Below, piece after piece: positions 25,557 to 51,606 of a stretch of DNA of 64,000 bases. The notes below the pieces were generated by a model that was given only the letters and a program-made list of their open reading frames with translations, had not been told where the DNA came from and made no database searches. The stretch covers positions 5,878,275 through 5,942,274 of the forward strand of contig NC_134032.1 of NCBI RefSeq assembly GCF_964204645.1. The letters run 5' to 3'. Made by a program: the position numbers and the translations under genes. Position 1 is the stretch's first letter; the number at the start of each line of letters is the position of its first letter. This stretch comes from Tubulanus polymorphus (lineage: Eukaryota; Animalia; Nemertea).

Positions 25557-25878
25557 CAATTCTACATTATAATTATTGAATTGAGTTAAATGATTTAAAT
25601 ATCTAATAGACTGTTAAAAAGATTAATTGTTTGACAGTTGAAGTGATAAATTGTTCGACTGTTGAAATGATAAGACAGTTGAAATGATAAATTGTTTGAC
25701 AGTTGAAATGATAAATTGTTTGACAGTTGAAATGATAAATTGTTTGACAGTTGAAATGATGAATTGTTTGACAGTTGAAATGATAAATTGTTTGACAGTT
25801 GAAATGATAAATTGTTTGACAGTTGAACTGATAAATTGTTTGGCAGTTGAAATGATAAGACAGCTGAAATGATAAATT

Positions 25879-28818
25879 GAAAGGCTGAATCCAAGAACAT
25901 GTCTATCGCAATTTTGAGCCCAAACGTCTTCTTTTACTTAGTAGCCACTTGAGAACAATAAGCAATTAACGATATCAGCTACTTTTCCAGTAGTATACCT
26001 TTCAAAACAGTCACTCTGAGGTTGCATTCCTTTCAATTCGGTTGGTTTTCTATAGTGGCTGTTTCGAAGAGTCTACTATTGAAAAGTGACCATTTTAAAA
26101 CATCTGGTTTCGATAGTGCACACTAGCAGTAGAGGTGACTGTAAAACCACCCGTCTGTCAACAGTGACTTTGTGATAGTAACTCTTACCATAACAGCTAC
26201 TCTTAAAACACATCGTTTCTAAAAGTCAACTATTGAAAAGTGACCATTTTGAGATGGCATGGTAATTTCCTGTTCAAAATAGCAGCATCTGTTTTAATTA
26301 AGATTTGCAGTGATACGTGACAGGGTCAAAGGTACTGTTAAACCCTATCTGCTTTCTATACAGAACTCTGTATGCTTTGAATACAGTTCTGTGAATAGAA
26401 AATCAAAGTTTTTGAGTTGCTGAGAATCCCCTAAATTATATCATCATGGATTAAATCCATTAATACGAAAATATAGTGCCAGTCCTAGAATTTTTAGAAT
26501 TTTAAGATTTGCGATTATAAAACATTCTGGTGCGTTCATAAATCTTTGATTTTGTAGAAAAGAAAGACAAAAAATAGATTTGTCTTTTAGGCTTAATTTG
26601 TTTTTAAGGGTATATGAGAGAGAAATATACAAATAAAATTATATGTTGAGAAAATGAATTACGAAAAAAATGTATCTAAAATACTTAGAATTCACCTTGA
26701 ATTTATTGTTTATTTCGATACAAATGATTTTTAAGTAATCCATGTGATGTTCACTTTGTCACGCGGTTCTCTGCTTGTTCGTTCTTGAATATCGTTGTAT
26801 CGTTTGTTAGAAGTGATACCCTAATCAAAATCTTATTTCGTAGTTATATAGTTTGGTTGAAATGAAATTACCAAGTATAATGAAAGATCAAAGGATTAGC
26901 GTATAAGAGTTGAGTGTTGAGATGTTCACGTAATTTTGAAATCAGCAATTTCATTTGATAGAGAAAACTTCGTTTGGCTTAAGAAGTGAAAGAAATGTGA
27001 TTTCTGTAAACTGTAATTTCAGTTTCACATACTTTCCTACTTTGTTGAGTAAATTGTTTATATAGGTTATCAAAAACTCAGCAGCAGCTATCGGTCAGCA
27101 GGTCAATTACACTGGCTAACTAGACAGTGATTGATGAAACAATGAACTAACTGCACTAACCACCTAAAGACCACGAACCAAAAGTAATCACCTCTCTTAA
27201 TTGTAATAAACTTAGCACCGCAATATCTCTATGAGACTATATTTTATTTTCGAATCGATGAACCAATGAATCGCTGAATTATAACATAATCGTCAGTTTT
27301 CTCCAACTAAACTCTTTTTTTCTCAAATTATTGTAAACCAACGTTACCAATACTTGAATTTGGAAGCGAATGCGGGCTAGAACCAACAAGGGTACCGCTT
27401 TAAGGTGCAGATATACAGGGAATCCCTCTCATAGCGACAAACTCGGTTGTATATCCCTTCTGTGCCGAAAAGTAAATAATTTTCGATCTAAACGGCTACA
27501 GGACCCGAAGAAGTCGAATAAAATACTCTAAACCGTGTTAACTGTAGATAAATGAAGAAATTCCACAATAGAATTTTGTATCATGAAATTTATTAAAGTT
27601 GAACCACAACGTTTCGGCTGTTAACTGACAGCCATCTGACTAAAAGCCCTTCTCACTAGGAATGCCTACATTCCACCTGCTGATGGCTGTTAGTCAACAG
27701 TCGAAACGTTGCGGTTTCACCATAACAAATTTTATCATATTTAAAATTCTATTGCGGGATTTCTTCATTCATGACCCCAGGGACGATCACCAAAGGCTGT
27801 TACCGTAATCCAAATGATATCTTGAATACCATACAAAGTTTCTTCTATTAAATTCGATGAAATATGGGCTCTCTTAGAATTTTTAAAATCCACATGGATA
27901 AAGCATATTTTGTTTTAAAAAAATCAATGATTTTGCGAAATTAGGATTCATGGAAATTCGGACACTCCGAAATGCACATCTTAATTTAAGATGCAAAGAC
28001 AACCATGCCCCCGTTGAAAATAAACCACCATTTCAATAATGAGAGGTTAGCCTGAATTCATGATTGTGCTTTTAATCTACGAATTTAAATCAAAAATAAA
28101 TGCAGACCTATGCTTGAAAAAAGCTGCATTTGTTCAAATTGAATTCATGAAAAGAAGGAAATTTCGATTTATCTTAAAACTACATAACTATTGACAATTT
28201 GTAAACAAATTTAATTCCAATCTCGACTTTTATTGGTTAGAGTTGGGAATCGCTCATTACATTTCACATCCTCAAAGAGTATCTACAATATCTTCGGATC
28301 TTAACTGAGTCACTCTTAATGAAACTATACCCCAAACTATAGAGTGAGTAGAGTTTTCCGTATGTTTATATTGTCACGTATCACTGCAAATTTGAAGCAT
28401 ATGTTGCTACCGTGTATTTATAACAGGGAATCTGGCAAGCGATCTCAAAATGGTCACTTTTCAATGGTTGACTTTTAGAAACGATGTGTTTTGAGAGTAG
28501 CTGCTATGGTAGGAGTTACTATCACAAAGTCACCGTTAACAGGCGGGTGGTTTTACAGTCACCTCTACTGCTAGTGTGCACTATCAAAACCAGATGTTTC
28601 AAAATGGTCACTTTTCAATAGTAGACTCTTCGAAACAGCCACTATAGAAAACCAACCGAATTGAAAGGAATACTATTTCAGAGTGACTGTTTTGAAATGT
28701 ATACTACTGGAAAAGTAGCTGATATCGTTAATTGCTTATTGTTCTCAAGTGGCTACTAAGTAAAAGTAGACGTTTGGGCTCAAAAGTGCGATACACATGT
28801 TCTTGGATTCAGCCTTTC
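25879..28818. mobile_element. Non-autonomous DNA transposon with ~380-440-bp TIRs and 4-bp AATT TSD (Sola-like)
   Basis: GAAAGGCTGAATCCAAGAACATG.. and ..CATGTTCTTGGATTCAGCCTTTC. AATT at 25875-25878 and 28819-28822. AWWT TSDs are typical of Sola1, so the family call is inference. Confidence 0.88.
27673..27716 (+). ncRNA. Minimal hammerhead-like motif (CUGA mutated to CUGC), with a partial inverted copy at 27603-27640
   Basis: CCAC-CTGCTGA-TGGCTGTT(agtc)AACAGTC-GAAACGTT-GCGG. The consensus with 9930-9985 gives an intact CUGAUGA/GAAAC core. Confidence 0.65.
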
Positions 28819-29633
28819 AATTGTTTGACAGTTGAAATGATAAATTGTTTGACAGTTGAAATGATAAATTGCTTGGCAGTTGAAATGATAAGACAGCTGA
28901 AATGATAAATTGTTTGACAGTTGAAATGATAAATTGTTTGACAGTTGAAATGATAAATTGTTAGACAGTTGAAATGATAAATTGTTCGACTGTTGAAATG
29001 ATAAGACAGTTGAAATGATAAATTGTTGGACAGTTGAAATGATAAATTGTTTGACAGTTGAAATGATAAATTGTTTGACAGTCGAAATGATAAATTGTTT
29101 AACAGTTGAAATGATAAATTGTTCGACTGTTGAAATGATAAATTGTTCGACAGTTGAAATGATAAATTGTTTGACAGTTGAAATGATAAATTGTTTGACA
29201 GTTGAAATGATAAATTGTTTGACAGTTGAAATGATAAATTGTTCAACTGTTGAAATGATAAATTGTTTGACAGTTGAAATGATAAATTGTTTGACGGCTG
29301 AAATGAAAAATTGTTTGACAGTTGAAATGAAAAATTGTTTGACAGTTGAAATGATAAATTATTTGACAGTTGAAATGTTAAATTGTTTGACTGTTAAAAT
29401 GTTAAATTGTTCGATTGTTGAAATGTTAAATTGTTAGACTGTTGAAATTTTAAATTGTTTGACTGTTGAAATGTTAAATTGTTAGACTGTTGAAATGTTA
29501 AATTGTTTGGTTGTAAATTTAATTGTTATTTGATTTAATTATTTAAAAGTTTAATATTTTAAAAATCATTATAAAATATTTAATTAAAAACTAGCAAATA
29601 TTTTATAAACTGTTTAATTTCTTTCTTAAATAA

Positions 29634-29852
29634 ATGGATGGTTTCATCCAAACTGGGAAAAGTGATTTGAAACATTATTTAGTAGCAGGAGGATTAATAT
29701 TGGCTGCGCTTTTCTTTTATTATGAAAATATCAGTAAGGATTTGATTAATGAAAATATAAAATTGAGCAAGAAATTAAAGAAGTTAAATGGAAACAACCA
29801 CAGAAAGAATAACAATAAAAAAGTTAATGATTTAAATGATTTGGAGGATTAA
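29634..29852 (+). CDS. Small single-TM hypothetical protein
   Basis: Starts at TAAATG. Hydrophobic YLVAGGLILAALFFYY followed by a basic tail. Confidence 0.6.
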   Translation: MDGFIQTGKSDLKHYLVAGGLILAALFFYYENISKDLINENIKLSKKLKKLNGNNHRKNNNKKVNDLNDLED

Positions 29853-29899
29853 AACAGCATCTTTTAATTTAATTTATTCTATATATTTTGACTATAAAA

Positions 29900-30205
29900 A
29901 TGAGTGAAAATAAGGTATTAGAAATATAACATCTAATATATAAAAATCAACAGAATATTAAATCAATTATCATGATTTCAGGTTTATTTTCATTCTCAGT
30001 TTATAGTATAAAACAGTTGTTAGAATTCTATGATTGCTGTAAAATTAGATACACTGAATTAATAGAAAATATAAATTATATTTCAGATAGATTGAATAAT
30101 ATTAAATGCTGTAAAATATGCAATAAAAGATATAAAAATAAAAAGAGTTTGAGTAATCACATGTATATTCATGAACTTGATGAAAAATTATATGAATCAA
30201 AATAA
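29900..30205 (+). pseudogene. Small C2H2 zinc-finger protein (5' end probably frameshifted)
   Basis: CKICNKRYKNKKSLSNHMYIH. An upstream ATG at about 29900 is interrupted by a stop. Confidence 0.6.
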
Positions 30206-31968
30206 GCAATCGACTGTTAAATTAGCTTGTTGGGTTCTTCTTCTTCTGTCTTCATTTTAATAACAAAAATTTTATTAAAATGAATCCAACGCATATAAAT
30301 ATAAATATTCAATGATTTATGAATTATTTCACTCACACTTTACTCAGACTTTTTTCTAGCGAGTAAAAATGAAAAATAAATTCGGGCGTGTGAGAATTAT
30401 TTTTCATTTTTTATGAGTTTCGCGACTAATTCAAGTAGAAATTGTTATTATTTTCATGTTTTTCATTTTTAATGAGCTCGACCGTTCGACCTTTGGTATA
30501 GAACAACTAAACCCCTATTACTCCTACTGTCTAATCATTTAAAAGCTTTGCCTTCACATGGAACTATTTCCGCCTTATCACAGGTGCACTCGTGCCGCCG
30601 TGATTCGCCCATTCAACGATACAAACTTTCTCACGGTCTTACTATCGGCATTTTCTAATAATTTAGGGAAATATTTTTAAAAAATTGCACACCCTGCATT
30701 AATAAGATTAAAATATTCATTCGTTTGACGAATCTCCCTCTGAACTCCCACTTAACTCCCCAATGAACTTAGCTTCATAAGATAGATTTTAAAACAATCC
30801 GTGTTGAAATAAGCTGTGTACGTCTGAAATAATCCAATAGTTTCCAGTCTCTAATCCCGCACCGCATGATCACCATTCGTAGCGTATTTAATCCTTTTAG
30901 AAGTTGTTTAGATTCTTAAATTCTTTCTGATGATACTGTTGATACTGTTATACATAACACAACAAACATATAATGGATAGCCAGCAGTAGAGCTGTGAAT
31001 ATAGTGAAGGAATGATGTTGTTTTATAGATTTTATATATGGCCTATGAGTACTGAGTTCACACACTTGTATGTTTGTTTGGCAACGATGATGCGTGGCTG
31101 CGGTCGAGGTGCATGCGCTATATAGGTCAATGATCCAGTTATTTTATTTTACTGATTTAAGACAAATAAGTGATGATTTTTTTCTATCAGGCTGATCCCA
31201 GGTCGTCATTTATATACTTAAGTATCATTTGGAAAGTAAATCTCAAAATGTATGAATTAGAGATGAATTAGAGGGCACTTGACCTTCATGAACAGCTTGA
31301 GAATACCGTAAAGTCTACGAGGCTCTCGTGACCGTAGCCATTTTAGTAATAGCAGGATGCTGTCATATTGTACGATGATCCCTACAAATTATGTTACTTC
31401 AATCAGGTTCGTTTTTGACTTCTCTTTTCTTTTTCATTCTGATCCACGTTGATGCTTCGAAAAACAATTTCACTTTCCAAAACGAACCAGGTAGCCGAAA
31501 AGAATGAATCAAAGATCCCTTGAAAATTGTGCAAAAGTTATCTTAAATACACTTGGCAAAATATGATATGAAATATATGTATTGTCTATTTTTGGTAAAC
31601 TGTAACATTTATACATTGACATAAACATATAAACATGTGAAAATAGATATTCCGATACAAGACAGGAATGTGTTGACCTTATTGATTTCATTCGGGTTAG
31701 TGGAATTTAGGATAAAATGTCAACATTATTGCGAGGAAATAAACGCCTGCGAAGAAATCTAAAACCAGGATTCGAAACCATGGAATGATCCCAAGTATAA
31801 CTAACGGGGCGAAGTGATGACAGCTTGAGGGTAGCTCAAATTACATCCCAATTACAATCTACATTTGAACATCTGTTTTAAAGGGTGACTTCAGTAAGTC
31901 TATTGAATATTTATATGAAATGGTTTAAAGGCAAAGGGCCAAGGTAGTAATGATGTTTATTTTTTTCA

Positions 31969-36300: not shown

Positions 36301-36744
36301 CGCTCGGTCTTCTTGGACATTTCTGCTGCGTTTGACACTCTTCCTCATTATCTCATCATCCACAAGCGAAAATCCTACGGTACTACTGTAAATGCGCTGT
36401 CTTTGATTTCAAGCTACCTCGATAACCGCCGGATACGCATTAAAGTCGACTCAACCTGCTCAAAAAGCGTCGTTATGATTTTTAATACCCACAAACATTC
36501 ATCTTTGACGATAATCTCTCGTTTAATGACCATGTGGAGTCTCTAGCAAATAAGGTGCAACAATTAATAAATCCACTGAAGCACTTGTCCCGATTTGTTA
36601 CATCCCGTCATCTCATAGGATTTACTCGTCTTTCATTAGCCCTCATTTCGACTATGGAAGTAATTGGAATATGGCGTTTTCATACCAGAGGTCGAGAGGT
36701 CGAGACACCACTCATCACCACAAGCAATTTTTTTTTCCTAATAA

Positions 36745-39700
36745 ATGGGAGATAATGAACAACACACAGAACAAATTGATGTTAATGAAAATCAATATTA
36801 TTGTACATATTGTAAATACAAAAAAAAATCTCAAAAATCACGCCATGAAAAATTTAAAAATCATATGAAAAATGTTATAGATTTTGAAACTCCAGAAAAT
36901 TCCAATGAAAGAAAAGAACGATTAGAAAATATGAATGTGAATGAAAGAAAATGTAATGTTTGTAATGAATTTATAATAAAAAGGAATTATAAAAGACATC
37001 TCGAATCACAAAAACACAAACAAAATTTAGATAAAAATGTTTTAGGATCAGAATATTTTGATGATAAACCTCAACAAGTAAAAAAATCAACTTCAAAAAC
37101 TAAATCCATTTCAAATAAACCTTACATGGAAAATGTTAGAAATTATATCGGTACTCTACAAATAAAAGATACAATTGAAATTTTAGAAACATTACGTAGT
37201 AAAATTGGTCCAACAGCTATTATATTTAGATTTTTTAAAGGTACAACAATAGAAAATTATAGTAAATTTAATGAAATAATAGAAAAGATACTAGATTTGA
37301 TAACAGATGTTGAATATCCAAAAATTAGTATTTCTGGGAAAGTAAGTTTTTTAAAGTCAGAAGAGAAAATGGATTATAATATTCAATCACATTCTTAAGA
37401 AATAATTTCAAAAACGCAAATAAAAGAGAAGTTAGAAAAAATATTTGATGAATTTAAACGACATATTGAAGAAAGATATTTTGAGGGTTCTGGTTTAACA
37501 TTAAATGAAATTATACTTTTAGATTTAAATGTTTATAATACAAAAAGGAATAAAACATCAAAAAGTAAAACAATGTTTAAAAATGATTCAAACTTTACAA
37601 CAGAAAAGGATATTAAAGCATCAAGTTATATCAAATTACCATTTACAACAAAAGCAGTAATAAATATCCAAAATGAAGATAATAAATGTTTTCTATGGTC
37701 AATTATTAGTTGCTTACACCCAACACAAGATATTACGCATAGTTTTAGAATAACAGATTACCGGAAATATGAAACATTATATAAAATTAATCAATATCCA
37801 GTAACTATAAAAATGATTCCTAAAATAGAAAAAAGATAATTATTTAAAAATAAATGTATTCGAATTAATGCAATAACCAAAGACAAAAGGTGAAAATATT
37901 AAAGATTATACATTAGAAGCTTTATATTTAACAGAATATTATGATGATGATAATGTTATAGATTTGTTATATTACAAAAAAGATGAAAATGAACATTATA
38001 TGTGGTTAAAACAAATTGATTCATTCTTTAGAACAGAAAGTGATTTTAACAGTCATAAAATATATTTATGTAGAAAATGTTTATCTAAATTTAGAACTGA
38101 AAATGCATTACTAAAACATATAGAATTATGTGATAATAAAGATTTTTGTAAATTAATAATGCCAACAGAAAAAGATTTTAAATTGAAATTTACCTATCAT
38201 AAATTTAAAAATATCGTTCCATTTGTAATTTATGGGGATTTTGAATCGTTGAATAAAGAATTAACTAATCAAGATAGAAAAGAAATATATAATAAAAAGC
38301 AAATTTTAAAATCAATGGATAAAGGAAATGAATTAAATGAAGTTATAATTCAAGATCCACCAATTATAAACACAATTAAAAAAGTTCATCAAAGAGCTGC
38401 TGCTTATGGAATTTATATAAAATCAAATTATCCTGAATTATATGTAAGTGAATATATTTCTTTTAGAGGTGAAGATGTAGTAAATGAATTTTGTAATAAA
38501 ATAATTGAAATAGAAAATGAATTTGAAAAATTATTAAACAAAAATAAAAAAGAATAGTTATGACAAAAGAAGATGAAATTGATTTTAATTATGCAACTCA
38601 TTGTTGTTATTGTGAAAAAAGTTTTTATTCATTTGATAAAAAAGTTAGAGATCATGATCATTTAAATTCAAAATATCGTAGAGCTGCCCATGAAGATTGT
38701 AATTTACAAGCTAAGAAAGTTAATTTCGTACCATTATTATTTCATAATTTATCGGGCTATGATACCCATCTATTTATAAAACAATTATCAGGAAAATTGG
38801 GCACAATTAATCAAGAAATAGATGAATATAATGCTATAAATGGTGTAAATTTAAGAAAATATGATTTTAAACTATTGGCTAAATCATCTGAAAATTATAT
38901 TTCATTTCAATTTGGTTGCATGAGATTTTTAGATTCTTATAGATTTCTAGCAAGTTCATTAGATAATTTAGCAAAAAGTTTAGTTGATAATGATTTTATA
39001 ATAACTCGATATTATTACCCAAATGAACAAGATTTTAAATTATTGAGATATAAAGGCGCAATTCCTTATTCATTTTATAAAACACATGATGATTTTAATG
39101 TAACAGAATTATTAAAAGAACAATTTTATGATCAATTAAAAGAGGAATATGTGAAAGATGAAGTGTTTGATAGAACATTAAATATTTGGAATCACTTTAA
39201 GATAAAAAATCATGGTGAGTTAGTAGATTTATACTTAAAATCAGATGTTATGATATTGGCTGACATATTTGAAAAATTTAGAGAAGTTAATTTAAATCAT
39301 TTTAATGTTGATCCTTGTTATTGCTACTCTAGTCCCGGTTTAACCTGGCAGTGTGGTTTGAAATATACAAATGTAGAATGAGATTTAGTAAAAGAACCAG
39401 ACATAGTTTTATTATTTGAAAAATCAATAAGAGGTGGAATTAGTGGTGTTATGGACATTTTAAAGCAAATGATGAATATAAATTAATATGTAATAGATGA
39501 AATCTAAGTGACGGACGCTTCGTCACTGCAGCTTGATTTAATTTTTACGACTAAGATTAAGAAATCATAACGATTCGAAAACAACCTCGCTAAAAATCAA
39601 GACAAATGATATAACAAAAGACTTAAAAACATTAAAACATCATTTTGATTTTAGCAATTATCCCAAAGATCATGAACTATTTAGCAATGATAATAAAAAG

Positions 39701-40033
39701 ATTCCTGGTAAGTTTAAAGATGAATTAGGGGGTGATGAAATGATTGAATTTGTTGGGATAAGAAGTAAAATGTATAGTTATAGAACAAAAGATCATGAAG
39801 CTAAAAAGTTAAAAGGAATAACAAAACATGTGGTTGATAAACACATAGAATTTCAAGATTATATAAAGTGTTTATATAACTCAATTGTAATGAAACATAA
39901 AATGAATTGTTTCAGAAGATCAGAAGATCATGAGATGTACATTAATGAAGTTGAAAAAACTAGTTTGAATCCATTCGATGATAAAAGGTGTATTTCAGAT
40001 GATGGTATAAAAACATTACCTTATGGTTTTTAA
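36745..40033 (+). pseudogene. Protein-primed DNA polymerase B with N-terminal Zn fingers, vOTU-like segment and HNH-like insert; palm deleted
   Basis: SSYIKLP..INIQNEDNKCFLWS; YGDFES; C..C..VRDHDH..AHEDCN; FHNLSGYD; FLDS; YLKSDV; IRGG; GKFKDE; RSKMYS; KLKGI. Multiple stops and frameshifts. Confidence 0.93.
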
Positions 40034-40872
40034 TTATTAATATTTTTATGAAATTGTTTCATTACAAATAAATCATCATCTTCTAATTCTTCATCTTCTA
40101 AAAGTTCTATATTTTGTTCATTAATACATTCAATTAAATATTTATAAATTTCATTCATTAAATGATCTTCATTTTCATTTAATTGTTCTTGCATAATTTC
40201 TTTAGGTTCGTTCATTTCATTTTTCTCATTTAAGTGAAGTTCTATATTGTTCCACATTTCATCTCGCTCTCTTTGTTTCTTTTTGTTCGTTTATTCATCA
40301 AATGGAATTATAATATCGATGTTTAAAAAATTTACAATCTTATTTAAAAAGAATTCATAATTAATTGAATCTGTTATTCTATTATCCACATAATATCTTA
40401 ATATTTGTTTGAATATGTCTTTTATATTTTCCATATCTTCTTCTGTTAATTTGGGTTTTTTTTATAATAATCGTTGGATAATAAATATAAATACATTTTC
40501 TTTTCTTGTGTGTTAAATGTTGATGGAATAATTGTTTTTATAATATCTTTTTTAGTTATTTCACCATTTTCATTTTCTATCATTTTTCATTTTTTCAAGC
40601 CATTTCTTATATTCTGGTGTATGATCTTCCATAGAAAATATCTTAAAAATTTCATCTAGATATTTTGATTTTGGTTCTATAAGAATATCTCTAGTTTTTT
40701 CATCACCCCATAAATTCTTTTGCCATCCACATTCATGACAAAATATCGCAGGACCTTTTCGTCTTAAGTACTCATAAATACATTGTGGGCATTTTTGTCT
40801 ATCATTCTTAGTAATAGATCTTTATTAAGCTCTTGGTATTTTCTTACGTTTTCTTTATGTTTTATTGTTCTA

Positions 40873-41463
40873 TTATGTAGATTTAATTGTTGTAATTAAA
40901 TTACTTGTTGTAATAATCAATTTACAATATTTACAATAATATGTTTTTCTTACTAATTCATTATATTGTTTTTCTAACTTTTCAACTGTTTCTTTATTAT
41001 CTGGTAACGTTTTCTCATATTTTATTTTTTCTAATATTTTATTTTTTCTTTCATTGAATTCTGTTTCAAATTTATTAGAAATTGTATTTATATGTACTTT
41101 ACGAAATTGATGATTCTCCCAATCTTCTATATTTTCAAGGCTATATTTTATTCGACAAGGCTCACAGAAATGATCTTTTATATTATCCTTATCATAGAAT
41201 AAGAAAGGTCTTTTCCAAATAATTTCAGGTTCAACTTCAACAGAATTACTATTACTTTCGTTACTATCAACATTAACCGTTGTGTCATTAATTTTACACT
41301 TCTCTGAATGTTTTTTAACATAATTTCTTGAGAATAATTTATTACATTTTGGGCAGTTTATTTTAGGGGGGTTATAATTTTCATCATGTTTTTTCATATG
41401 TCGAGCCATATTACTTTTTCTGAGAAGTTCACCACAAATTTCACATCCTATCTTCTCATCCAT
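40873..41463 (-). CDS. Multi-C2H2 zinc-finger protein (3' end frameshifted)
   Basis: CEICGELLRKSNMARHMKKH, CPKCNKLFSRNYVKKH, CEPC..H..H. TAAATG start. Confidence 0.75.
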   Translation of the reverse strand: MDEKIGCEICGELLRKSNMARHMKKHDENYNPPKINCPKCNKLFSRNYVKKHSEKCKINDTTVNVDSNESNSNSVEVEPEIIWKRPFLFYDKDNIKDHFCEPCRIKYSLENIEDWENHQFRKVHINTISNKFETEFNERKNKILEKIKYEKTLPDNKETVEKLEKQYNELVRKTYYCKYCKLIITTSNLITTIKST

Positions 41464-41531
41464 TTATTTAGTAAACATTTTATTAAAATTAATTTTTAAT
41501 GGTTCGAAGTAATTTTTTTGTGTTATAAATA

Positions 41532-42283
41532 ATGGTTGAATTAAAAGAATATAGAATATTTGTTGATTCTAGAAGACTTACTAATTATAAATCACATAAT
41601 TTATTAGTACAATTAGATAGAGAATTTAAGAATTGTGTTGATTTAAAATTAGTTAATATAAGTTTATGTAACTCATTTTACAATATATCGGATAAAAGTC
41701 TAGAACATTTAATTTTTTCAATCTTTTACAAAAAAAGGAATAAATGGTTTTTTATGTATTTAAAACCAGGATTATATAATTTAGATACATTAGCACAAGA
41801 AATTAATAGAAAACCTCGAGCTAAATTAGGAAGTGATTCCGGATTTAGTATTAGATTTTCAAAAAGTGATAGTTCTAATAAAATAAAGATTAGGTTAACT
41901 CATGATGAACAATTTAAATTTGCAGTAAGGAAACCTTTAGCTAAACTGTTAGGAATTAACCCAGATTTTGTTACAGTAAACGCAGAAGGTAGATCAAACT
42001 TAATACCTTACACACATTTCTATATTTATTGTAATTTAATTGATCCTACAAAAACATTTGAAGCAACTAAAGATACAATTTGTAATTCTAGTATATTAAA
42101 TATTTTACCATTGAAGAATGTTAAACAATTTGGAACTCAAATAAATTATAATTTAGCTGAGTGTGATTTTTAAACCTTGAATTTCACATTTCAATAATTT
42201 CAAATTAGATGTAAGAAATCATAATGGATACTTAATTGATTTGAATAACTTTCCTGTAATTTATGAATTAGTTATAAGATGTA
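41532..42283 (+). pseudogene. Probable minor capsid (penton, single jelly-roll) protein; frameshift near 42170
   Basis: IFVDSR, ISLCNSFYNI, PGLY, LAKLLG, YIYCNLI, and a downstream GYLIDLNNFPV.YEL pattern typical of Polinton/virophage mCPs. Confidence 0.68.
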
Positions 42284-42307
42284 AAGAGTAATTTTTTCGA
42301 TATATAA

Positions 42308-42665
42308 ATGAATATAATTGTTGGGCCGAGCATATGTTTTGGATTTGATTTTAAGCGTGAGAACGAAATGAAATTTAACATTACTGATGTAATTACACAT
42401 ATTAAAAATATTACATTTTCTAATGAAACAACATTTGAGTATGAAAAAAAAAACAATAGATAAAGAAACTTTAAATGTAGAAAATATTCCTAATTTAATT
42501 AGAGAATCTTTAAGATTTTATGAATTAGATGAAGATTTTATCATCGATGATATTAAAAAAATAATAATTGAAATGTATACAAATGAAACTAGTAATGAAA
42601 TAAATGTTGAAATAATCATCACTAAGATAACTAAATATTTTGAAGATGTTAATTTTTTTGATTAA
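42308..42665 (+). pseudogene. Polinton hypothetical protein (frameshifted)
   Basis: TAAATG start at 42308, continuing into ORF 42423-42665. Confidence 0.5.
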
Positions 42666-42668
42666 TAA

Positions 42669-42895
42669 ATGAGTGATAATAAGTGGATAATAACTGGATT
42701 ATATAATGGAGCCTAACTATCAGTTGGAACTGTTGGTTATTCAATGGTATTTAAAAAAGTATTTAAAATGGGAAGTGTTAATGTTGATAGATTTGATATA
42801 AATGATATTTTAAAATTAACGTTAGCAGTTACTTTATCTAATTTAACAATTGATTATTTAGAAAAACAAAAAATTTATTCCTCCTATATAAATGC
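42669..42895 (+). pseudogene. Small hydrophobic Polinton protein (frameshifted)
   Basis: TAAATG start; LSVGTVGYSMVFKK..LKLTLAVTL..DYLEKQK. Confidence 0.55.
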
Positions 42896-42915
42896 ATAAT
42901 TTATTTATTAAATAA

Positions 42916-43371
42916 ATGGCTTCTGCAATTATAACTATTATAGGATCGGCAATTGTTAACGCTTTAGCATTTACTGGTGGCGGTTATTTGTTTAAGCATA
43001 TTGATAAAAATGGTTCATTATCAGAACAAAAAAGACATAACTTAGCATTAGAAAAATATAAGAAAGCAGCGGAAGAATACAGAGAAAAGAGACAAAATTA
43101 TATGGATTATACCAGGGAAGTGTGATGACACTTCCCTGATTATACTAACAAGAAATTATATGATCAGAAGATTTCACATAGAGATTTTCAATCAGTTGAT
43201 GATGCAATGAGTTTATAAAACGCAGTAACCAATAAAGAAAAATTACATCTATACAAACCTAAATTATCAGATTATTATACCCCAAGTAAAGAACAACAGA
43301 AATATGAAATAATATGGATTTTAGGTGGTACAGTTATTGTTATATTTGTAGCATATAAATTTACTAATTAG
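42916..43371 (+). pseudogene. Polinton membrane-type protein disrupted by a palindromic micro-insertion
   Basis: MASAIITIIGSAIVNALAFTGGGYLF..KRHNLALE. The frame continues after removing the insert (one further stop) to a C-terminal TM segment. Confidence 0.7.
43113..43138. other. 26-bp CA..TG palindrome with 7-bp TSD ATTATAC (probable excision footprint)
   Basis: CAGGGAAGTGT-gatg-ACACTTCCCTG with TSD at 43106-43112 and 43139-43145. Confidence 0.8.
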
Positions 43372-43390
43372 TAATTTTTTTGCTAAATAA

Positions 43391-43825
43391 ATGGATGATA
43401 AAGTTGATAATATTGATATTATTTCACATGATATAAATAAAACTGAATTAAAAACATATTTAGAAGAACAAATATTAGAATTTGAAAGTGATTTAAAGAT
43501 AAAAAAGAAAAAATATTTAAAAAGTAAAATTATATATTATTTTATTATCAGTGGTTCAGTTACAATTAGTTCTGTAATAACATTTCTAGCAATATTCAGT
43601 CCATTAACACCTTTAGCTATATCAATTGGTGTGTTAGGTTTAAGTTCAAGTGTTTTAACTGGTATAAATTCAAAATTAAATATAAAAAGTAATAAAGAAA
43701 AAATGAAAACTAGTATAAAAGAAATTAATAAATTGAAGAATACACTAGATTATATAATAAGTTTAAATGGTCATATAACAGTTGAAGAACAAGATAAATT
43801 ATTAAAAGAATTAGTTAATTATTAA
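43391..43825 (+). CDS. Two-TM, coiled-coil Polinton protein
   Basis: Intact 144 aa with a central hydrophobic hairpin. T7-N6-TAAATG start. Confidence 0.75.
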   Translation: MDDKVDNIDIISHDINKTELKTYLEEQILEFESDLKIKKKKYLKSKIIYYFIISGSVTISSVITFLAIFSPLTPLAISIGVLGLSSSVLTGINSKLNIKSNKEKMKTSIKEINKLKNTLDYIISLNGHITVEEQDKLLKELVNY

Positions 43826-43899
43826 TTTTTTTATCATATGAATGGGTTTTCCAAAAGCTTTCCAATATAATAAATCAATAATAAAATAAATTAATAATT

Positions 43900-45181
43900 A
43901 AAAATTATTATAAATTAAATATAATATTCCCGCAATAGATTTTGATAAAAATAGTACATATAGAAATTTCGTTTTCAATTCATTAACTAATCTAGAAATT
44001 TATGTTACTGAATCACAGTTTTTTATTTCTAAAATGGAAAATATATTTAATACATATGAAGTTACTTTTACTCGAGATGAATATCATATATTTATATAAA
44101 GTAAAATCTAATATGAAATATTGGCAGAATCAATTAAATGTTGCTGTTTATTGTGCAACAACTGGTTGTGGTATAAGTTGGAATGATCATTAAAATAACT
44201 TAGATAAAAATTTGAATTATTCTGATTTAAAATTAATTCACACAATATTTAGATTTCACACATATTTTCAAATCAGAATAATATTAAATGAATTAGAATG
44301 TCCTTTACCCGGATCTAAATATCTTTAAGAATTGGATAATAATAATAATCTATCTAAGTTTTATAAAATATGTAATGAATTTAATATAAATATTAATTCC
44401 GATTTTAGAGCGCATGGTAAATTGCAAGGTATTGGTGAACAGTATGAAATAAAAAGAATTGATTATATGCATAGAATTGGAGCTTATCATAATTATAAAA
44501 TTGATAATAATAATGGTTGGATTAATTTCATTTAATTTTAGAAAATAGTGAAGGTTTTACTATAAAGCTGGAATACAAAGAATAAATCAATCAATTAGAA
44601 CTTATTTGATATGCATTTTAGGCGCGCAAGTTGAAACAAGATCACCAATAGCTGGAAATGATAACACTTCATTTGATACACAGAAACAATTCAAAGTATT
44701 ATTTGAAGATTCAATTCATAATGATAAAAATAGATCGATTCCAGAAAACATAGTAAGATATCAAAATTATTTAGATAAATCACATATTAGATTAAATTAT
44801 TGTATAGGCCCTAATCTATTAATCATTTCTTATGATTTAGTATTAAAGATGGGAAATATAATTGGTTATAATAATCTAATTAAAACTGCAACAATAAATA
44901 ATTCATTTGGATTGAATGATATAAATAAAAAAGATTATTACTGCTCCAAAATTAAGGTGAAAAAAATAAAAAAAAATATTCAATCAACAGAAACTAAAAC
45001 TAAGAATATTAAATTAAATAATGATTCTAAAATAAAAGATTATAATACTTCAGAAAATGGTAAAACTCATATTATTCAACATGAAATAGATAAAACTGAT
45101 TATGATAATAAATCCCATGAAAATGCTAAATTAGCTATAACTTGTATAGGAATTGTAATCGGAGTAATATTATATTTTTAA
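43900..45181 (+). pseudogene. Conserved Polinton hypothetical protein with C-terminal TM, multiply disrupted
   Basis: YWQNQLN.AV.CATTGCGIS, RFH.YFQ.R.IL, RINQSI..Y..CILGAQV.TRS, recalled as a recurrent invertebrate Polinton ORF. Confidence 0.65.
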
Positions 45182-45203
45182 TTTTAATTTTTTTATTATA
45201 TAA

Positions 45204-45814
45204 ATGGCAAAAGTAGATATTCCATTGGATCCTTTAGATGACGCTCCTGGTATAAGTGATGAACCACAACCTGATTTTGATGAAACAAGTTTTGGTAACG
45301 ATAATGAAACAGCATATAATTCTAATTTAGCAAGACCTGATACTAATGGATTTGTTAGTAAAGCACGTTCAAGATTGGATATTGAAAATGAAAATAAAGG
45401 TTTAATAAAAAAAGAATTAGAATATGAAGAATTAACTGATAAATTTAAACCAATATTAAAAAATTCTGGTTTCAATATAACTAATAAAGGTATGAATTAT
45501 TTAGTAAAAGATTTGAAATATTTAAATGGTGACTATTATTGGCATTTGAAAGATGACTATTATTTTAAGATATCTTCGAATAAAAGTCTCGATAAAATAA
45601 TAACAAAACCAACTTTAATTAAATTAGAACAATCTAGAATTAAGAAAATCAATAATGATGTTATAACTGATGTTACAGAAGAAGAGATAACTCTAAATAG
45701 AATAGAATTTAAACGAAGAAATGATGATTTTTTGAAGATAATTAATGAAAATTTAGAACCAGAAACAATTCCTAAAGAAGTTATTAATTCTAAAACTAGT
45801 AAACTTAAATCAAC
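45204..45814 (+). pseudogene. 5' part of a Polinton hypothetical gene fused by deletion to the capsid gene
   Basis: T7-N6-TAAATG start and acidic N-terminus; sequence character changes near 45815. Confidence 0.55.
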
Positions 45815-46534
45815 TGCAATTCAAGAAGATATTATATTTGAAATAACATTTGCTCCTGTAAATGAAATTGTATTATCTAGCGTTGTTAAAGATATGGGTT
45901 ATAAATTATCGAATATATGTTTAGAATATGATACAGTAACTAATGAAAATATTGTATTAACACAATTCAAACTCAATACAAAGGATTTTCATTATTATAT
46001 GATTATATTGATAAGTTTAAAACTGTAACTATTAATGCAAGTGATGAAATAATTGATGAGAATATTAACTTCCCAAGAAGATCTATTAAAGGTATATTAA
46101 TATTTTTCACAATTGCAACATATTCTAATGGCGCAATAAATGTTGATAATTATTATAATCCTGAAATAACTAAAGTAGATATAACTATCGAAGGAATAGC
46201 AAATTAAATATTTTGTCAAGGAATGAGAATGATAGATCAAAGGCCAGAAATTAGAAAACATTTTATGAATGAAAAATTAAAATCATCTGAAAATTGTAAT
46301 ATTAATCAAATTGATTATTATACCGGTAATAAATATGCATAATGGTTAGATTTTAGAACAACAGAGGATAACTTATTACATGGTTCTGGGAAAAAACTAC
46401 AAAATACAAAAGATGGAATACAATTATTCATGAAAAAGAAAAAAAGAAGCTTAAATTTCAAAATGCACATTTATATTATATCTGACGCGCAATTAAATAT
46501 TATGAATTCTCAATTAGAAAGTATTCAATATTAG
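45815..46534 (+). pseudogene. Major capsid protein (double jelly-roll), C-terminal half only
   Basis: FEITFA, YKLSNICLEYD, INFPRRSIKGILIFF, NPEITKVDITIEG, WLDFRTTEDNLLHGSG, ISDAQLNI match the pattern of invertebrate Polinton MCPs. From recall, not searched. Confidence 0.7.
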
Positions 46535-46594
46535 AAATATTAATTAGAAAGTATTCAATATTAGAAATATAAAGTTAAAATTAACGATATATAA

Positions 46595-47722
46595 ATGGGT
46601 GGTGAAAAAACTCCTAATACTAAAGAACAATATTTAAGAAATCTATATTACAACCCTGAGATTTCGGTTGCTTATTTTTCTATAAAAAATATATGGCGCC
46701 AAGTAAAACAAGATAAATTAGATAAGATAATCCCACAAAATTTAGTTAAATATAAAGATATAAATGATTTTATGTTAGAACAGCCAACATATACAACACA
46801 TAAAAAAATTGTTAGAAAATATAAAACTCGTAAAACTATGGTAAGTTATGTAGATCAACAGTGGCAAGGAGATTTAATTGATATGAAAAATCTTAAAAAA
46901 GATAATAATGATTATTGGTGGATATTGAATATAATTGATATTTTTAGTCGTTATGTATGGAGCTTCCCACTTTATAGAAAAGATGCTGCACAAACATCAC
47001 ATGTTTTAAGAAAATTTCTTTCAGGTGGTAAACTAAAACCAGAAAAAATTCAATTTGATGATGGAAAAGAATTTGATAATTCATTAGTTCATGGACTTTT
47101 AGATTTTCATAATATTAAATATTTTTCGACAAAATCGGATAAAAAAGCAGCAGTTGTTGAACGATTTAATAGAACATTAAGAACAAGAATGTGGAAATAT
47201 TTCACAGCAAATAATACTTATAAATTGATTGATATTTTACCAAAATTGATAGAAGGTTATAACAATTCTTGTCATTCTTCTATTGGAATGAAACCTATTG
47301 ATGCTAAAAAACCTGAAAATGCTGAAATTGTTTGGAATAACTTGTATGGGGCATTTCTTGTAGATGATTTTGGTGAGCCCAAATTTAAAGTTGGTCAAAA
47401 TGTTAGAATTTCAAAGTATAAAAAGATATTTGACAAAGGATACGATCGAAATTTTACTAGGGAAATATATAAAATAAAAAAGGTAATAACAACAAAACCA
47501 TATGTCTATAAATTAGAAGATTTAGATGGTGAAGAAGTTGATGGGTATTTTTATGAAGAAGAATTGAATTTACCTACTGAAAATCTAGAACAAGAATATA
47601 AAATTGAAAAAGTATTAAAAACAAAAACTGTTAAAAGAAAAAAATATTCTTTAGTAAAATGGGTTGGATGGCCAGATAAATTTAATGAATGGATATTATC
47701 AAGTAAAATTAAAGATATATAA
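46595..47722 (+). CDS. Retroviral-type (rve) integrase with C-terminal chromodomain
   Basis: WQGDLID, IDIFSRY, QFDDGKEF, VERFNRT, F.KGY..NFT.E, IEKVL..LVKW.GW..FNEWI. ORF intact. Confidence 0.96.
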   Translation: MGGEKTPNTKEQYLRNLYYNPEISVAYFSIKNIWRQVKQDKLDKIIPQNLVKYKDINDFMLEQPTYTTHKKIVRKYKTRKTMVSYVDQQWQGDLIDMKNLKKDNNDYWWILNIIDIFSRYVWSFPLYRKDAAQTSHVLRKFLSGGKLKPEKIQFDDGKEFDNSLVHGLLDFHNIKYFSTKSDKKAAVVERFNRTLRTRMWKYFTANNTYKLIDILPKLIEGYNNSCHSSIGMKPIDAKKPENAEIVWNNLYGAFLVDDFGEPKFKVGQNVRISKYKKIFDKGYDRNFTREIYKIKKVITTKPYVYKLEDLDGEEVDGYFYEEELNLPTENLEQEYKIEKVLKTKTVKRKKYSLVKWVGWPDKFNEWILSSKIKDI

Positions 47723-48331
47723 ATGAATAAGGAATTATTTATATTTGAACCTCATAATATGTTAATTTCTGGCGTAACAAATTGTGGAAAAACTTATTTT
47801 ATATTAAATTTATTAGAAACTATTTATAAAAACTATTTTGATAATATAGTATTATTTTGTCCAACATATGAATTTAATCAAACTTATGATAGAAATATTA
47901 CTAGAAATAATAAATTTATTATATTAGATCCTAAAACAGTTAAAGGAAATTTAGATAATTGTATTAAAATAGCAATTGATATTTACAAAGGATCTAATAC
48001 ATTATTTATCATAAATGATTGTGCAAATTTACATGATTCAAAAGTGAGAGAAAGTGAGTTATGCTATTTAGCTTTCTCTGGGAGACATTTTGGGATGACA
48101 ACTTGGGTTTTAAATCAAAAATATAATTCAATTGTTAAAGATTTTAGAGAAAACATTAGATTTTTAGTTTTATTTTATAACAAAGATAGGAAATCGATGA
48201 AAAATGCACTTGAGGAAAATGATATTATTCCACATGATTTACATAATGAATATATGGATAAATTGAAAAATAATAAAAGATCAAAATTACTATTAAGATT
48301 ACAACACCCATTTAAATATGAATTTATTTAA
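47723..48331 (+). CDS. A32/FtsK-like DNA packaging ATPase
   Basis: Walker A GVTNCGKT, Walker B FIIND (D-to-N variant), GRH, NQKY, REN. Confidence 0.92.
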   Translation: MNKELFIFEPHNMLISGVTNCGKTYFILNLLETIYKNYFDNIVLFCPTYEFNQTYDRNITRNNKFIILDPKTVKGNLDNCIKIAIDIYKGSNTLFIINDCANLHDSKVRESELCYLAFSGRHFGMTTWVLNQKYNSIVKDFRENIRFLVLFYNKDRKSMKNALEENDIIPHDLHNEYMDKLKNNKRSKLLLRLQHPFKYEFI

Positions 48332-48650
48332 ACTCAACTAGCTTGTTAATCTAGTATATTTTAGTTACAATCTAGTTGAATTCTAGTTATTGGTAGTTGG
48401 AACAAAAATCAACTAGATTTAACAAGAAATAAATAAAAACAACAATATTTCAACTAGCTTGTTAATCTAGTTTAATTCTAGTTACATTCTAGTTAAATTC
48501 TAGTTGAATTCTAGTTGTAAGTAGTTGAAACAAAAATCAAATAAAATTCAACAATAAATAAATAAAAACTACAATATTTCAACTAGTTTGTTAATCTAGT
48601 TGAATTCTAGTTAAATTCTAGTTGAATTCTAGTTGCAACAACACAACTAA
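48332..48650. repeat. Intergenic CTAG-rich tandem repeat (about 120-bp period, about 2.6 units)
   Basis: TCAACTAG(C/T)TTGTTAATCTAG near 48334, 48450 and 48579, with nested 11-bp TTCTAGTT(G/A)AA units. Confidence 0.85.
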
Positions 48651-48666
48651 TTTGTTTGTTATATAA

Positions 48667-49257
48667 ATGGGAGGTGAAAAGAAAATAAAATCTAAAAATG
48701 GTGATGTTCTAATTGAAAAAACTTTAGATGATTTAGGAATGATAGAAACAAAATTAACTCCAGATGATGGTGCTTTAAATAATGTTACAACAAATATTAA
48801 TTATGAATATTATCTTTATTGCAAACATCAATTAGAAATATTAATAGCGTCTGGAAAATGTAAAAATTTTATCGGTAAAAATTTAACTTATAATGAATTA
48901 GACACAATGAAATCAGATGAAATTATTATATTATTTAAGATTAATGAAACCGCGAGAATAGCTAGAATTAATGATGCGATATCAGAAAATGTAGTAAAAG
49001 GTTATAGTAAATTATGTAATTATATGCTGCCAATTCAAGATGAAAATAGATTATATGCTGATTTAAAAAATGATTATTTAGTTATGACTGAATTGAATAA
49101 ATGGATTGGATATTTATCATTTCAATTAGGTGGATTTATGACATTATTATCAACTGGAGTTATAACATTTTCAAATATTGAAAGTAAAAGTGTTTCTATA
49201 ATAAATGAGCGAGGTGGAAGAAGTGAAGAAAAAACCGAGAAGTCCAAAACAAATTGA
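48667..49257 (+). CDS. Polinton hypothetical protein
   Basis: Intact 196 aa with TAAATG start; L..DLKND and a hydrophobic C-terminal segment. Confidence 0.7.
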   Translation: MGGEKKIKSKNGDVLIEKTLDDLGMIETKLTPDDGALNNVTTNINYEYYLYCKHQLEILIASGKCKNFIGKNLTYNELDTMKSDEIIILFKINETARIARINDAISENVVKGYSKLCNYMLPIQDENRLYADLKNDYLVMTELNKWIGYLSFQLGGFMTLLSTGVITFSNIESKSVSIINERGGRSEEKTEKSKTN

Positions 49258-49525
49258 ATGGTCTCAGCAATTAGGAATTAAATCACAAGAATATAAAAAA
49301 GCTGTAAAAGAAAAAATAAGTAATAAAAATGGTGAAAATATTGTTATTTCTTCTCCTTCTAATAATAGAATATTTGATAAATATCTATATTTTACGGCTG
49401 GATTTGTAATTGTATTCATTTTGATTGGGTGTAGTTGGTATAAGAAATCAAATAAAATTCATGATATTAATAATTCTGAAATAACTGCTATTAAAATGAA
49501 AATACTTCTGAAATTCAAAAATTGA
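49205..49525 (+). CDS. Small single-TM Polinton protein
   Basis: TAAATG start, basic N-terminus, TM YLYFTAGFVIVFILIGCSW. Confidence 0.65.
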   Translation: MSEVEEVKKKPRSPKQIEWSQQLGIKSQEYKKAVKEKISNKNGENIVISSPSNNRIFDKYLYFTAGFVIVFILIGCSWYKKSNKIHDINNSEITAIKMKILLKFKN

Positions 49526-49747
49526 TAATAAAAAAATGGATTAATATTTTAGAAAAAAAGCAAAAAAAATAATTTTTTTAATTAATTGAATTGTCCAGAT
49601 AAGTCATTTCGGATTCTAGATGTTCATTATTTTTATTATTTTATTTTCTATTTAATCAACAATTTCTAAATCATGATGACCGTCTTCATTTTTTCCATGA
49701 TAGATTATTTTAAATCATTCTAAATCTTTTAATTCCTCTGTACTCAA

Positions 49748-49978
49748 TTAAACCCATTTATCAGGTAAAAATACTTGAAATTCTCGCGTTGTACTAACAT
49801 TACAGTAGCTTAAATTTGCTGATACTTTCTCTCCATATTTAGTTTTTATCTTTTCTAATTTTAATATTTTGCGTTCAATTTCTTTTGTAACATCAGCTAA
49901 CTTTTTTATTTCAATTTGTTTTTTTGCTGGTTTTATTCTGTTATTTATTGTTGCTAAGAATGCTTTTCTATCTCCCAT
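49748..49978 (-). CDS. Basic hypothetical protein starting inside the right TIR
   Basis: Uses the TIR-encoded TAAATGGGAGATA start, mirroring the pPolB start. Confidence 0.55.
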   Translation of the reverse strand: MGDRKAFLATINNRIKPAKKQIEIKKLADVTKEIERKILKLEKIKTKYGEKVSANLSYCNVSTTREFQVFLPDKWV

Positions 49979-51606
49979 TTATTAGGAAAAAAAATTACTT
50001 GTGGTGATGAGTGGTGTCTCGACCTCTCGACCTCTGGTATGAAAACGCCATATTCCAATTACTTATGGAGACATATTGTACAACAGTGCAAGTAAAGCCT
50101 CCCTCGCAAAACTGGACCGAGTCCACTACTCAGCAGCTCTTTGCGTTTCCGGGTGTATCCGTGGCTCGAATTCTAGCAAAGTCCTTTCTTGTCTCAACTG
50201 GAAAACACTCGGTACTCGTAGGAAAGAACGACTTCAAACATATATGTACCGAGTCTCATCAGGAAATATTCCCACTCACGCCTCTTCTATCTTTAATACA
50301 TACAAATCGGTTCGACCTCGCTTCATCAGAAATCCTCGACCCTTCACCATACCAGCCGGCACTAGTGCGAAAATTCGTTCGTCTCCCTCCTTTTTACTCA
50401 TGGACACCTGGAACAACACCGACAATAATCTTCGCTCGCTGACTACGCTTTCCCTATTCAAGTCTCGTATCAAACATAAAGTTTAGACTGCTGTTCCAAC
50501 CTACTTGATTAACGACATAAACCGAGATGAAGAAATTTCACTTAACCGATTACGCACCGACCTCCTTTTAAAATCTCAATTTTATGTTCACAACTTTATT
50601 AATGTCCGTAATCCAACATGCAACTTGTGTAAAAAAACCAGCTAACACTAAACACTTTATGCTTAAATGCCAGTCACCTGGTCACAAAACAAAAATCGAC
50701 GCTCTGTTTTCCTCATTCGACAATAAAATAACTGATCACATCTCAAATCTCACTGAAACCAATAAGATAAACTTCCTACTTAACGGCGAAATCTCCCTTT
50801 TCGACCTCCGTACTAACACTCAAATGCTAAAAAATGTTTAAAAATGTATTCTTAGTAACTACCAACAATTCCAACATTAGACACCTACACTTGTACAGTA
50901 CCTGCTCTGTTAGCCATTTCATATAAACCATCGTGTAACATTTCTAAATTTATGTCTGGTTTACGCCGAATTTGTAACTTGTAAATGTTTAACTTAACTT
51001 TTGACTTTTGCCTATAATTTACTTGTACCTTGGCACTGGAACTTATATTATAATGTATATTAATATTCGGAATAAACATCTTGATAACTCAAAAAAAAAG
51101 ATTTTGAATGGCGCAACCCGTCTACAATTGACACCTAAAGCGGTTTCTGCGTGTGAACATCTATTATTGCAAAACTGGTTACCTTGGAACCATTAATTTG
51201 CTATTCCACCAGCATAAACATAATTCCGACCATACACCCTGGCACCAGATGCTAGCGCAATCGTCATGGTTCGGATGTTCCGCGTGTATTGTGGCACTAT
51301 CCTTGGACTGCCCATTTAAAAAAAGTTGAACTTCGTATAATTCAGTTTTTCACTTATGCTACGGAAGCGATATTTTTTGGTGGCAATTTTTTGCTCATTA
51401 AAATAACTGCTGTACATCTTTCAGACGAGGCTACGTTGTTTTATATATATATATATAACGTTCCGCTACAATAGATTTCACTAAATTTATAATGGTCATT
51501 ATCTTAAACTATTAAAAGTTCTAAAGTATGAGTGCTTAAATCTTTTTTTCAATATTGTTTAAACTCATAGCGTTGACAGATTACCTGTTATTGCGCCTTT
51601 ATGGGT

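Follow-up and report, generated by a model that had tools for sequence, protein, structure and literature searches.

A poxvirus-like motif at the gene starts of an animal Polinton suggests a satellite transcribed by a pox-type helper virus

Introduction

Which RNA polymerase transcribes an animal Polinton that appears to encode none of its own? The transcription and autonomy of animal Polintons are an open question, made testable by a promoter signature shared with poxviruses that we describe here for a 13,405-bp Polinton of the nemertean Tubulanus polymorphus. The element occupies positions 36659-50063 of a 64,000-nt stretch of contig NC_134032.1 (positions 5,878,275 to 5,942,274, forward strand; hereafter "the window"), where it is inserted within a remnant of a long interspersed nuclear element (LINE). 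Its genes typically start at TAAATG, often preceded by a T-run at a fixed distance. The original prediction, made from the letters of the window, was that the machinery of a pox-like helper virus, rather than host RNA polymerase II (Pol II), transcribes the element. That claim is supported by the enrichment of the motif at gene starts, by the spacing of the T-tract and by the absence of the motif from a sister clade, with additional support from head-to-head genes whose start codons lie 4-6 nt apart and from an entomopoxvirus-like VLTF3 gene; the step from motif to helper is one that we infer. The prediction named a giant virus as helper; a viral helper is supported, but "pox-type (Pokkesviricetes) virus" is the better wording. 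We consider it likely that the element is a virophage-like satellite transcribed by the RNA polymerase of a pox-type helper.

The start motif within the element

All 12 ATGs originally listed as overlapping TAAATG were confirmed (36745, 41463(-), 42308, 42669, 42916, 43391, 45204, 46595, 47723, 48667, 49205 and 49978(-)), as was a TAAAT (41526-41530) one base before the ATG at 41532. The run of T6-T9 ending 5-7 nt upstream of TAAAT was likewise found at seven starts (36745, 41532, 42308, 42669, 43391, 45204 and 49978(-)), as compared to only 2/232 other TAAAT sites in the element, which has 239 TAAAT sites in total, 13 of them at starts. A 14th start that was not in the first list (ATG at 43842) has a T7 run, a 6-nt spacer and an initiator with one mismatch. 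TAAATG is present at 12/14 gene starts, the remaining two having TAAAT one base early and a single mismatch, respectively; by contrast, TAA precedes only 33/522 other ATGs. Since an in-frame TAA makes any TAAATG open an open reading frame (ORF), we also used as a control other ATGs that are the first after a stop, and 33/362 of these are preceded by TAA (Fisher p = 1.6e-10). The pattern T6-N5-7-TAAAT occurs nine times in the element, as compared to 2.0 +/- 1.4 times in shuffled sequence, with 0/500 block shuffles reaching nine. The starts at 36745 and 49978 represent one promoter duplicated in the terminal repeat, and should therefore count once. Start positions were checked by tblastn with intact genes of the closest relative, L001, or with the intact homologue P0110, and the matches begin at or near the starts; PolB and the gene at 45204 gave no such match.

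The genes of the element and their start signals, in window coordinates, are as follows.

36745-40033 (+): protein-primed DNA polymerase B (PolB), broken by stops and frameshifts; Pfam DNA_pol_B_2, E 8.5e-9, for one piece
40030-41463 (-): broken gene for C2H2 zinc fingers, an A2L-like zinc ribbon and a VLTF3 domain; TAAATG start
41532-42285 (+): putative minor capsid protein, by resemblance, frameshifted; T7-N6-TAAAT; homologue at L001:565
42308-42665 (+): small gene, frameshifted; T6-N7-TAAATG; homologue at L001:1333
42669-42899 (+): conserved small hydrophobic gene, interrupted by an internal stop; T7-N6-TAAATG
42916-43372 (+): conserved small gene, broken; imperfect T-run and TAAATG; 71% identity to L001:2014
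43391-43825 (+): intact 144-aa hydrophobic protein; T7-N6-TAAATG; weak SLATT match, below cut-off
43842-45181 (+): conserved gene of ~440 aa, broken; T7, 6-nt spacer, one-mismatch initiator
45204-46534 (+): conserved gene start (T7-N6-TAAATG) leading into the C-terminal part of a double jelly-roll (DJR) major capsid protein (MCP)
46595-47722 (+): intact rve integrase with chromodomain; TAAATG; Pfam rve, E 1.1e-8
47723-48331 (+): intact A32-like packaging ATPase; TAAATG; Pfam Pox_A32, E 2.7e-12
48667-49257 (+): intact conserved 196-aa gene; imperfect T-run and TAAATG
49205-49525 (+): intact conserved 106-aa gene; TAAATG
49650-49978 (-): small conserved gene, broken; right-terminal-repeat promoter T8-N5-TAAATG; 70% identity to L001:125

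Consistent with the earlier statement that Polintons encode no RNA polymerase, we found no RNA polymerase gene or subunit among the scanned ORFs of the window, of L001, or among 17 accessory ORFs of relatives; no capping enzyme was detected in the element either.

Two other interpretations of the motif were considered. A trans-splice acceptor is ruled out, as no AG follows the T-run. A division into two promoter classes (intermediate-like with an A-core at the integrase and ATPase genes, late-like with a T-core elsewhere) is visible in the window but is not conserved gene by gene in relatives, and we treat the signal as a single A/T-tract motif.

Conservation of the motif across relatives

An ATPase alignment retrieved 84 loci, most of which are short contigs; genes in these relatives were delimited through homology clusters, and the first ATG of each was scored. 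A quick ATPase tree separates a 53-row clade that holds the window element from a 23-row sister clade (Shimodaira-Hasegawa-like approximate likelihood-ratio test, SH-aLRT, 99). We dropped near-identical twins (L006, L016, which scored 0/2, L020, L024, L027, L053, L055, L074 and L078), eight loci whose ATPase pieces are short, and a remote locus, L081. The motif proved to be conserved in family copies: across 39 related loci, with GC content ranging from 20 to 45%, TAAATG is found at 152/163 homology-defined starts versus 174/4,704 other ATGs. In two nested subclades, represented by seven loci, TAAATG is found at 0/27 starts, giving 152/190 for the clade as a whole. The same test in another Polinton clade, the sister clade, gave 3/98, i.e., the motif is absent there, and the eight sister-clade loci with GC content <=38% gave 1/29. 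The spacer is also conserved, with the T-tract in relatives forming a sharp positional peak at -15 to -12; TTT occupies -14 to -12 at 69/152 start-associated TAAATG sequences versus 7/144 that are not at starts. In the near-complete locus L027, all 11 family-assigned genes as well as PolB start at TAAATG, and there is no VLTF3 match, indicating that the signal is independent of the element's own factor.

The motif could be a relic, if an ancestor used a pox-type polymerase and today's genomic copies move as transposons that do without one; the window copy is indeed decayed, with part of its capsid gene gone, and the family has tens of copies. Nonetheless, the motif is found at ~93% of starts even though the ATPases are only ~41-81% identical to that of the window, and its retention across such diverged loci requires continuing selection. 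We regard a relic as very improbable for the lineage; it may hold for the window copy without altering our reading of the lineage.

The TAA of TAAATG is in frame with the start codon, which raises the possibility of a translation signal rather than a promoter, either a stop codon in frame that protects the start codon or a stop-start arrangement for re-initiation on polycistronic RNA. Indeed, the TAA of the ATPase start (47723) doubles as the stop codon of the integrase gene, and TAA ends an upstream ORF at 14/152 starts in the relatives. The other 138/152 starts are uncoupled from any upstream ORF, TAA is the only stop codon used, both strands of head-to-head gene pairs carry TAAATG, and the T-tract keeps a constant distance, about one helical turn. 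A translation signal is, in our view, the least probable of the explanations considered here.

Gene arrangement and start context bear on the host polymerase. There are 12 head-to-head gene pairs <80 nt apart in the relatives, and the distance between the two ATGs is 4, 4 and 6 nt in pairs of L013, L014 and L011, respectively. A distance of 4-6 nt leaves no room for templated leaders unless transcription starts inside the opposite gene, implying leaderless starts. TAAATG places a T at -3, a poor translation context for a Pol II mRNA; in the sister clade, 58% of starts have A at this position. The main rival to a helper is an autonomous nuclear virus in which host Pol II would recognise TAAAT as a compact initiator, aided by a host factor or by the zinc-finger/VLTF3 protein that the element encodes. 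An mRNA that starts in TAAAT would be almost leaderless, and any longer leader would run across upstream ATGs, which show no depletion beyond -20 (1.6-2.1 per 100 nt).

The seven loci of the two motif-less subclades have a different signal: TATA lies <=8 nt from the ATG at 20/27 starts, as compared to 68/868 in the control, often with a T-tract further upstream. A Pol II TATA box is ruled out, since these sequences are 0-8 nt from the ATG and not 25-30 nt before a start site.

The VLTF3 gene

The broken gene at 41463-40030 touches on both the helper and the Pol II explanations. Its C-terminal piece, with a stop read as X, matches PF04947 at 30.8 bits (cut-off 25), and the alignment includes a zinc ribbon upstream of the VLTF3 domain; the whole-frame read of the window gene and the intact homologues P0110 and P0111 have no Pfam VLTF3 match. 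P0110 aligns over 41460-40129 and also matches a Polinton gene of L001. A search of 1.84 billion representatives returned only four matches: P0110 and P0111, both zinc-finger/VLTF3 fusions, followed by P0112 and, last, a generic VLTF3. Three named entomopoxvirus VLTF-3 proteins share 60-63% identity with P0112, such that the best non-Polinton match of the element's gene is an entomopoxvirus-type VLTF-3. HHalign probabilities are 96% for the entomopoxvirus profile, 51% for the generic protein and 0.5% for a profile of the type found in sister-clade locus L054; 0/300 shuffled controls reach the real profile score; and a 13-row tree unites Polinton-type VLTF3 with entomopoxvirus VLTF-3 at 97/94.

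An element with its own VLTF3 fused to C2H2 fingers, and with an integration step in the nucleus, is what the Pol II explanation would call for. Moreover, mriyaviruses, for which a nuclear cycle is proposed, retain VLTF3 although they have no RNA polymerase (PMC11253617), so VLTF3 is no proof of a helper. On the other hand, among the 84 loci, most of them short contigs, the Polinton-type VLTF3 profile matches only the window, L001 (in its zinc-finger part) and L050, L027 not being among them, and the VLTF3 gene itself lies behind the same motif. We consider transcription by host Pol II unlikely, though it is the alternative that we take most seriously. VLTF3 has been noted previously in a polintovirus subgroup (PMC11131425).

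We made three further observations on VLTF3 proteins. First, L054 has TATA at 8/8 starts and a stand-alone VLTF3 gene at 5749-6387(-) (PF04947, E 1.3e-16) whose product groups apart from entomopoxvirus VLTF-3, and which is probably a second, independent capture. Second, P0101, a zinc-ribbon ORF at L025:4144-4746(-), resembles VLTF3/TFIIB by eye and has no Pfam match. Third, P0112 and P0116, which share 76% identity, are VLTF-3 proteins of the entomopoxvirus type that are unnamed and 60-63% identical to the named ones; by sequence, they point to undescribed pox-type viruses in public assemblies.

A model for helper-dependent transcription

We propose that a co-infecting pox-type virus supplies the RNA polymerase that reads the two-part signal, an A/T tract at a fixed spacing from a TAAAT that overlaps the ATG. 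Transcription would start inside TAAAT, and polymerase slippage, as in vaccinia virus, would add a poly(A) leader, which would also convert the unfavourable T at -3 to A. Given that PolB, the integrase and the VLTF3 gene all carry the post-replicative type of signal, with no early class, expression would require a helper already in its late phase. Integrated copies may be silent until infection by a pox-type virus, by analogy with mavirus. The zinc-finger/VLTF3 fusion may have been captured from a pox-type virus, and could bias, or compete for, the late machinery of the helper.

Several points weigh against this model. Neither a helper virus nor a transcript was found. A scan of viral contigs for the promoter pattern gave single matches among the matches listed, too unspecific to indicate a helper, and four further runs under the same species label yielded only 0-4 short pieces each and carry no weight here. 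Integration requires passage through the nucleus. Relative to codon-shuffle controls, AATAAA (221 observed versus 229 expected) and ATTAAA are not avoided in coding sequences. The TATA subclades and the TATA pattern were set apart after inspecting the data, the ATPase tree is a quick tree, and the p-values overstate significance, given the relatedness of the loci and the non-independence of genes that share a locus. The entomopoxvirus affinity of the VLTF3 gene comes from few sequences with long branches, from proteins of similarly low complexity, and with few outgroups. Foldseek matched VLTF3 proteins, confirming the family only, and ranked the VLTF3 of Tetraselmis virus above those of cowpox virus and entomopoxviruses, albeit with a poor model (predicted local distance difference test, pLDDT, 60; predicted template modelling score, pTM, 0.32). 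Lastly, the presumably nuclear mriyaviruses, which have no RNA polymerase of their own, also have VLTF3 (PMC11253617).

The motif-less sister clade behaves alike with respect to AATAAA and ATTAAA, and hence the test for Pol II signals does not discriminate. Splice-donor words showed no informative depletion in codon-shuffle controls, again with the sister clade alike, and T5NT is lowered on both strands in the same kind of control. Scans of viral contigs with the ATPase and with generic VLTF3 as single proteins gave no match.

Comparison with known promoters and satellites

The late promoter of vaccinia virus consists of a T-containing core, a spacer of 5-7 bp and TAAAT(G/A) over the start, and that of African swine fever virus (ASFV) of TATTT at -15 to -11 with TATATA at the start (PMC5294985). 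Thus, the two Polinton motifs, TAAATG and TATA, correspond in sequence to late promoters from both classical Pokkesviricetes families: the first shares with poxvirus post-replicative promoters the TAAAT(G) initiator on the start codon and the A/T core at a fixed spacing of about one helical turn, and the motif-less subclades share with ASFV a TATA-type initiator. The vaccinia virus polymerase contacts TAAA, with a spacer of about one turn (PMC12917281), and slippage at TAAAT generates poly(A) leaders (PMC6211774). In a fish poxvirus, many genes are annotated with TAAATG (PMC4542343). Unlike in poxviruses, the Polinton signal is found at ~93% of genes, including that for DNA polymerase; an entomopoxvirus-type contig used as a control (L205) has TAAATG at 7/19 ORFs, versus 38/699 other ATGs.

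The element shares with Polintons/Mavericks ("adintoviruses"; PMC8502044) the terminal inverted repeats, the 6-bp duplication, protein-primed PolB, rve integrase, A32-like ATPase and DJR MCP. It differs from adintoviruses as delimited in the available text of that paper in that no maturation (adenain) protease family was detected among ORFs of the window, a copy with a deletion, or of L001, which is partial.

Small viruses that have no RNA polymerase and use the promoter motif of a helper are known from protists, namely mavirus with Cafeteria roenbergensis virus (CroV; 10.1101/068312) and Gezel-14T with Phaeocystis globosa virus (PgV; 10.1101/2022.07.28.501842). Mavirus promoters match the CroV late motif, and CroV induces integrated mavirus (10.1101/068312). 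Like the element, these viruses are integrating (mavirus) or Polinton-like (Gezel-14T) and have no RNA polymerase of their own; they differ in having protist hosts, Imitervirales helpers and experimental proof, as opposed to an animal host, a pox-type motif and a case made from sequence. Entomopoxvirus-associated Polinton-like viruses (PLVs) have also been proposed to be poxvirus hyperparasites, and exchange genes with entomopoxviruses (Barth et al., 2024; PMC11296320). Unlike the element, as far as the available text describes them, they were discovered inside occlusion bodies, their capsids are divergent and no rve integrase is present; the words "motif", "upstream" and "transcription" are absent from that text. 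The yeast elements pGKL1/2 are also linear with a TAAAN initiator, and have poly(A) leaders made by slippage; pGKL2, in contrast to the element, in which neither was detected, encodes its own polymerase and capping enzyme (PMC6211774).

What is already known, then, is promoter sharing between small viruses and their helpers in protists, and the presence of PLVs in entomopoxvirus occlusion bodies (PMC11296320). What is new here is the clade-wide start statistics, the TAAATG/TATA switch and the entomopoxvirus-like VLTF3 in the element. We found no description of pox-type promoters in Polintons in the searched literature, most subscription journals and supplements lying outside it; the word "promoter" is absent from the main text of PMC8502044, PMC11131425 and 10.1101/2023.08.22.554363, and no pox-type Polinton promoters are described in the available portions of 10.64898/2026.07.28.741278, 10.64898/2026.10.13.758929, 10.64898/2026.06.19.733378 and 10.1101/2024.03.23.586382.

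More tentatively, a large clade of animal-endogenous, integrase-bearing Polintons might be satellites of Pokkesviricetes, with the start motif recording the helper (TAAATG for pox-like, TATA for asfarvirus-like) and switching between subclades, and with some members having captured a zinc-finger-fused late factor that redirects the helper polymerase; we lean slightly away from this broader proposal. If it were true, Polinton copies would mark hosts of undiscovered pox-type viruses, and these copies could serve animals as an inducible antiviral defence, like mavirus in its protist host. Helper-dependent transcription would itself carry the provirophage lifestyle over from protists to animal genomes, and the start motif gives a sequence marker with which to look for pox-type and asfar-type viruses in hosts that have none known.

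Structure and copy number of the element

As a copy of an integrating Polinton virus, the element has decayed: its integrase and ATPase genes remain intact, but PolB and several others are disrupted, and the capsid gene lacks its 5' part. It ends 5'-AG...CT-3' in terminal inverted repeats of the Polinton/Maverick type, flanked on both sides by a 6-bp target duplication (TATGGA).

36653-36658 (no strand): left target-site duplication (TATGGA)
36659-36754 (+): left terminal inverted repeat (5'-AG), with the T9-N5-TAAATG promoter and the first PolB codons
49969-50063 (-): right terminal inverted repeat (ends CT-3')
50064-50069 (no strand): right target-site duplication (TATGGA)

At both ends, the inverted repeat extends through the promoter into the first codons. 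The joint of the empty site (36652 to 50064) is present in reads and contigs, namely in runs X1-X3 and in 46 reads of the raw-read run X5. In X5, depth is ~170-890 over the element versus 5-8 in the outermost flank bins, and reads that exit the right end continue into unlike sequences (agreement 0.38), indicating a family of tens of copies inserted at many sites.

The 5' part of the MCP gene and its promoter are absent from the window copy; the MCPs of L001, L003 and L005 cover only ~45720-46531 of the window by tblastn, and 420 reads diverge from the window at 45816. The remaining C-terminal part is 70% identical to the L001 MCP, the model of which (pLDDT 88) is a double jelly roll that matches DJR capsids at E ~1e-16, including those of Paramecium bursaria chlorella virus 1 (PBCV-1), an iridovirus and mavirus. 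The candidate minor capsid gene at 41532 has only a weak DUF5901 match, the homologue of the gene at 42308 gave no usable Atlas match, PDB sequence searches returned nothing useful, and Rfam gave 0 matches.

The PolB pieces of the window cluster with the 1394-aa PolB of L054. The N-terminal PolB ORF of L027 (171-4200) has no tblastn match to the window PolB, whereas its other genes are homologous, which suggests, at the sequence level, polymerase exchange within the TAAATG clade. L001 has a deoxynucleoside kinase gene at 10343-10981(-) (Pfam dNK, E 1.7e-31) behind the same TAAATG-type promoter.

Within the element, a non-coding repeat block of ~120-nt units lies at 48340-48660, between the ATPase gene and the next gene (repeat families D6 and D16). 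Elsewhere in the window there is a BEL/Pao retrotransposon in two separated parts (729-3585 and 13035-15683); this family is essentially confined to animals, and its presence was the ground in the sequence for taking the host to be an animal. The window also has an AT-rich element that occurs several times (19040-21260, 24670-26300 and 28360-30530), with nested inverted repeats, 24-nt tandem arrays and an ORF of 180-230 aa that has only weak Pfam matches. The ends of these AT-rich elements resemble the Polinton terminal repeat (repeat family D7, with 50017-50073), and from this resemblance they may be non-autonomous Polinton derivatives.

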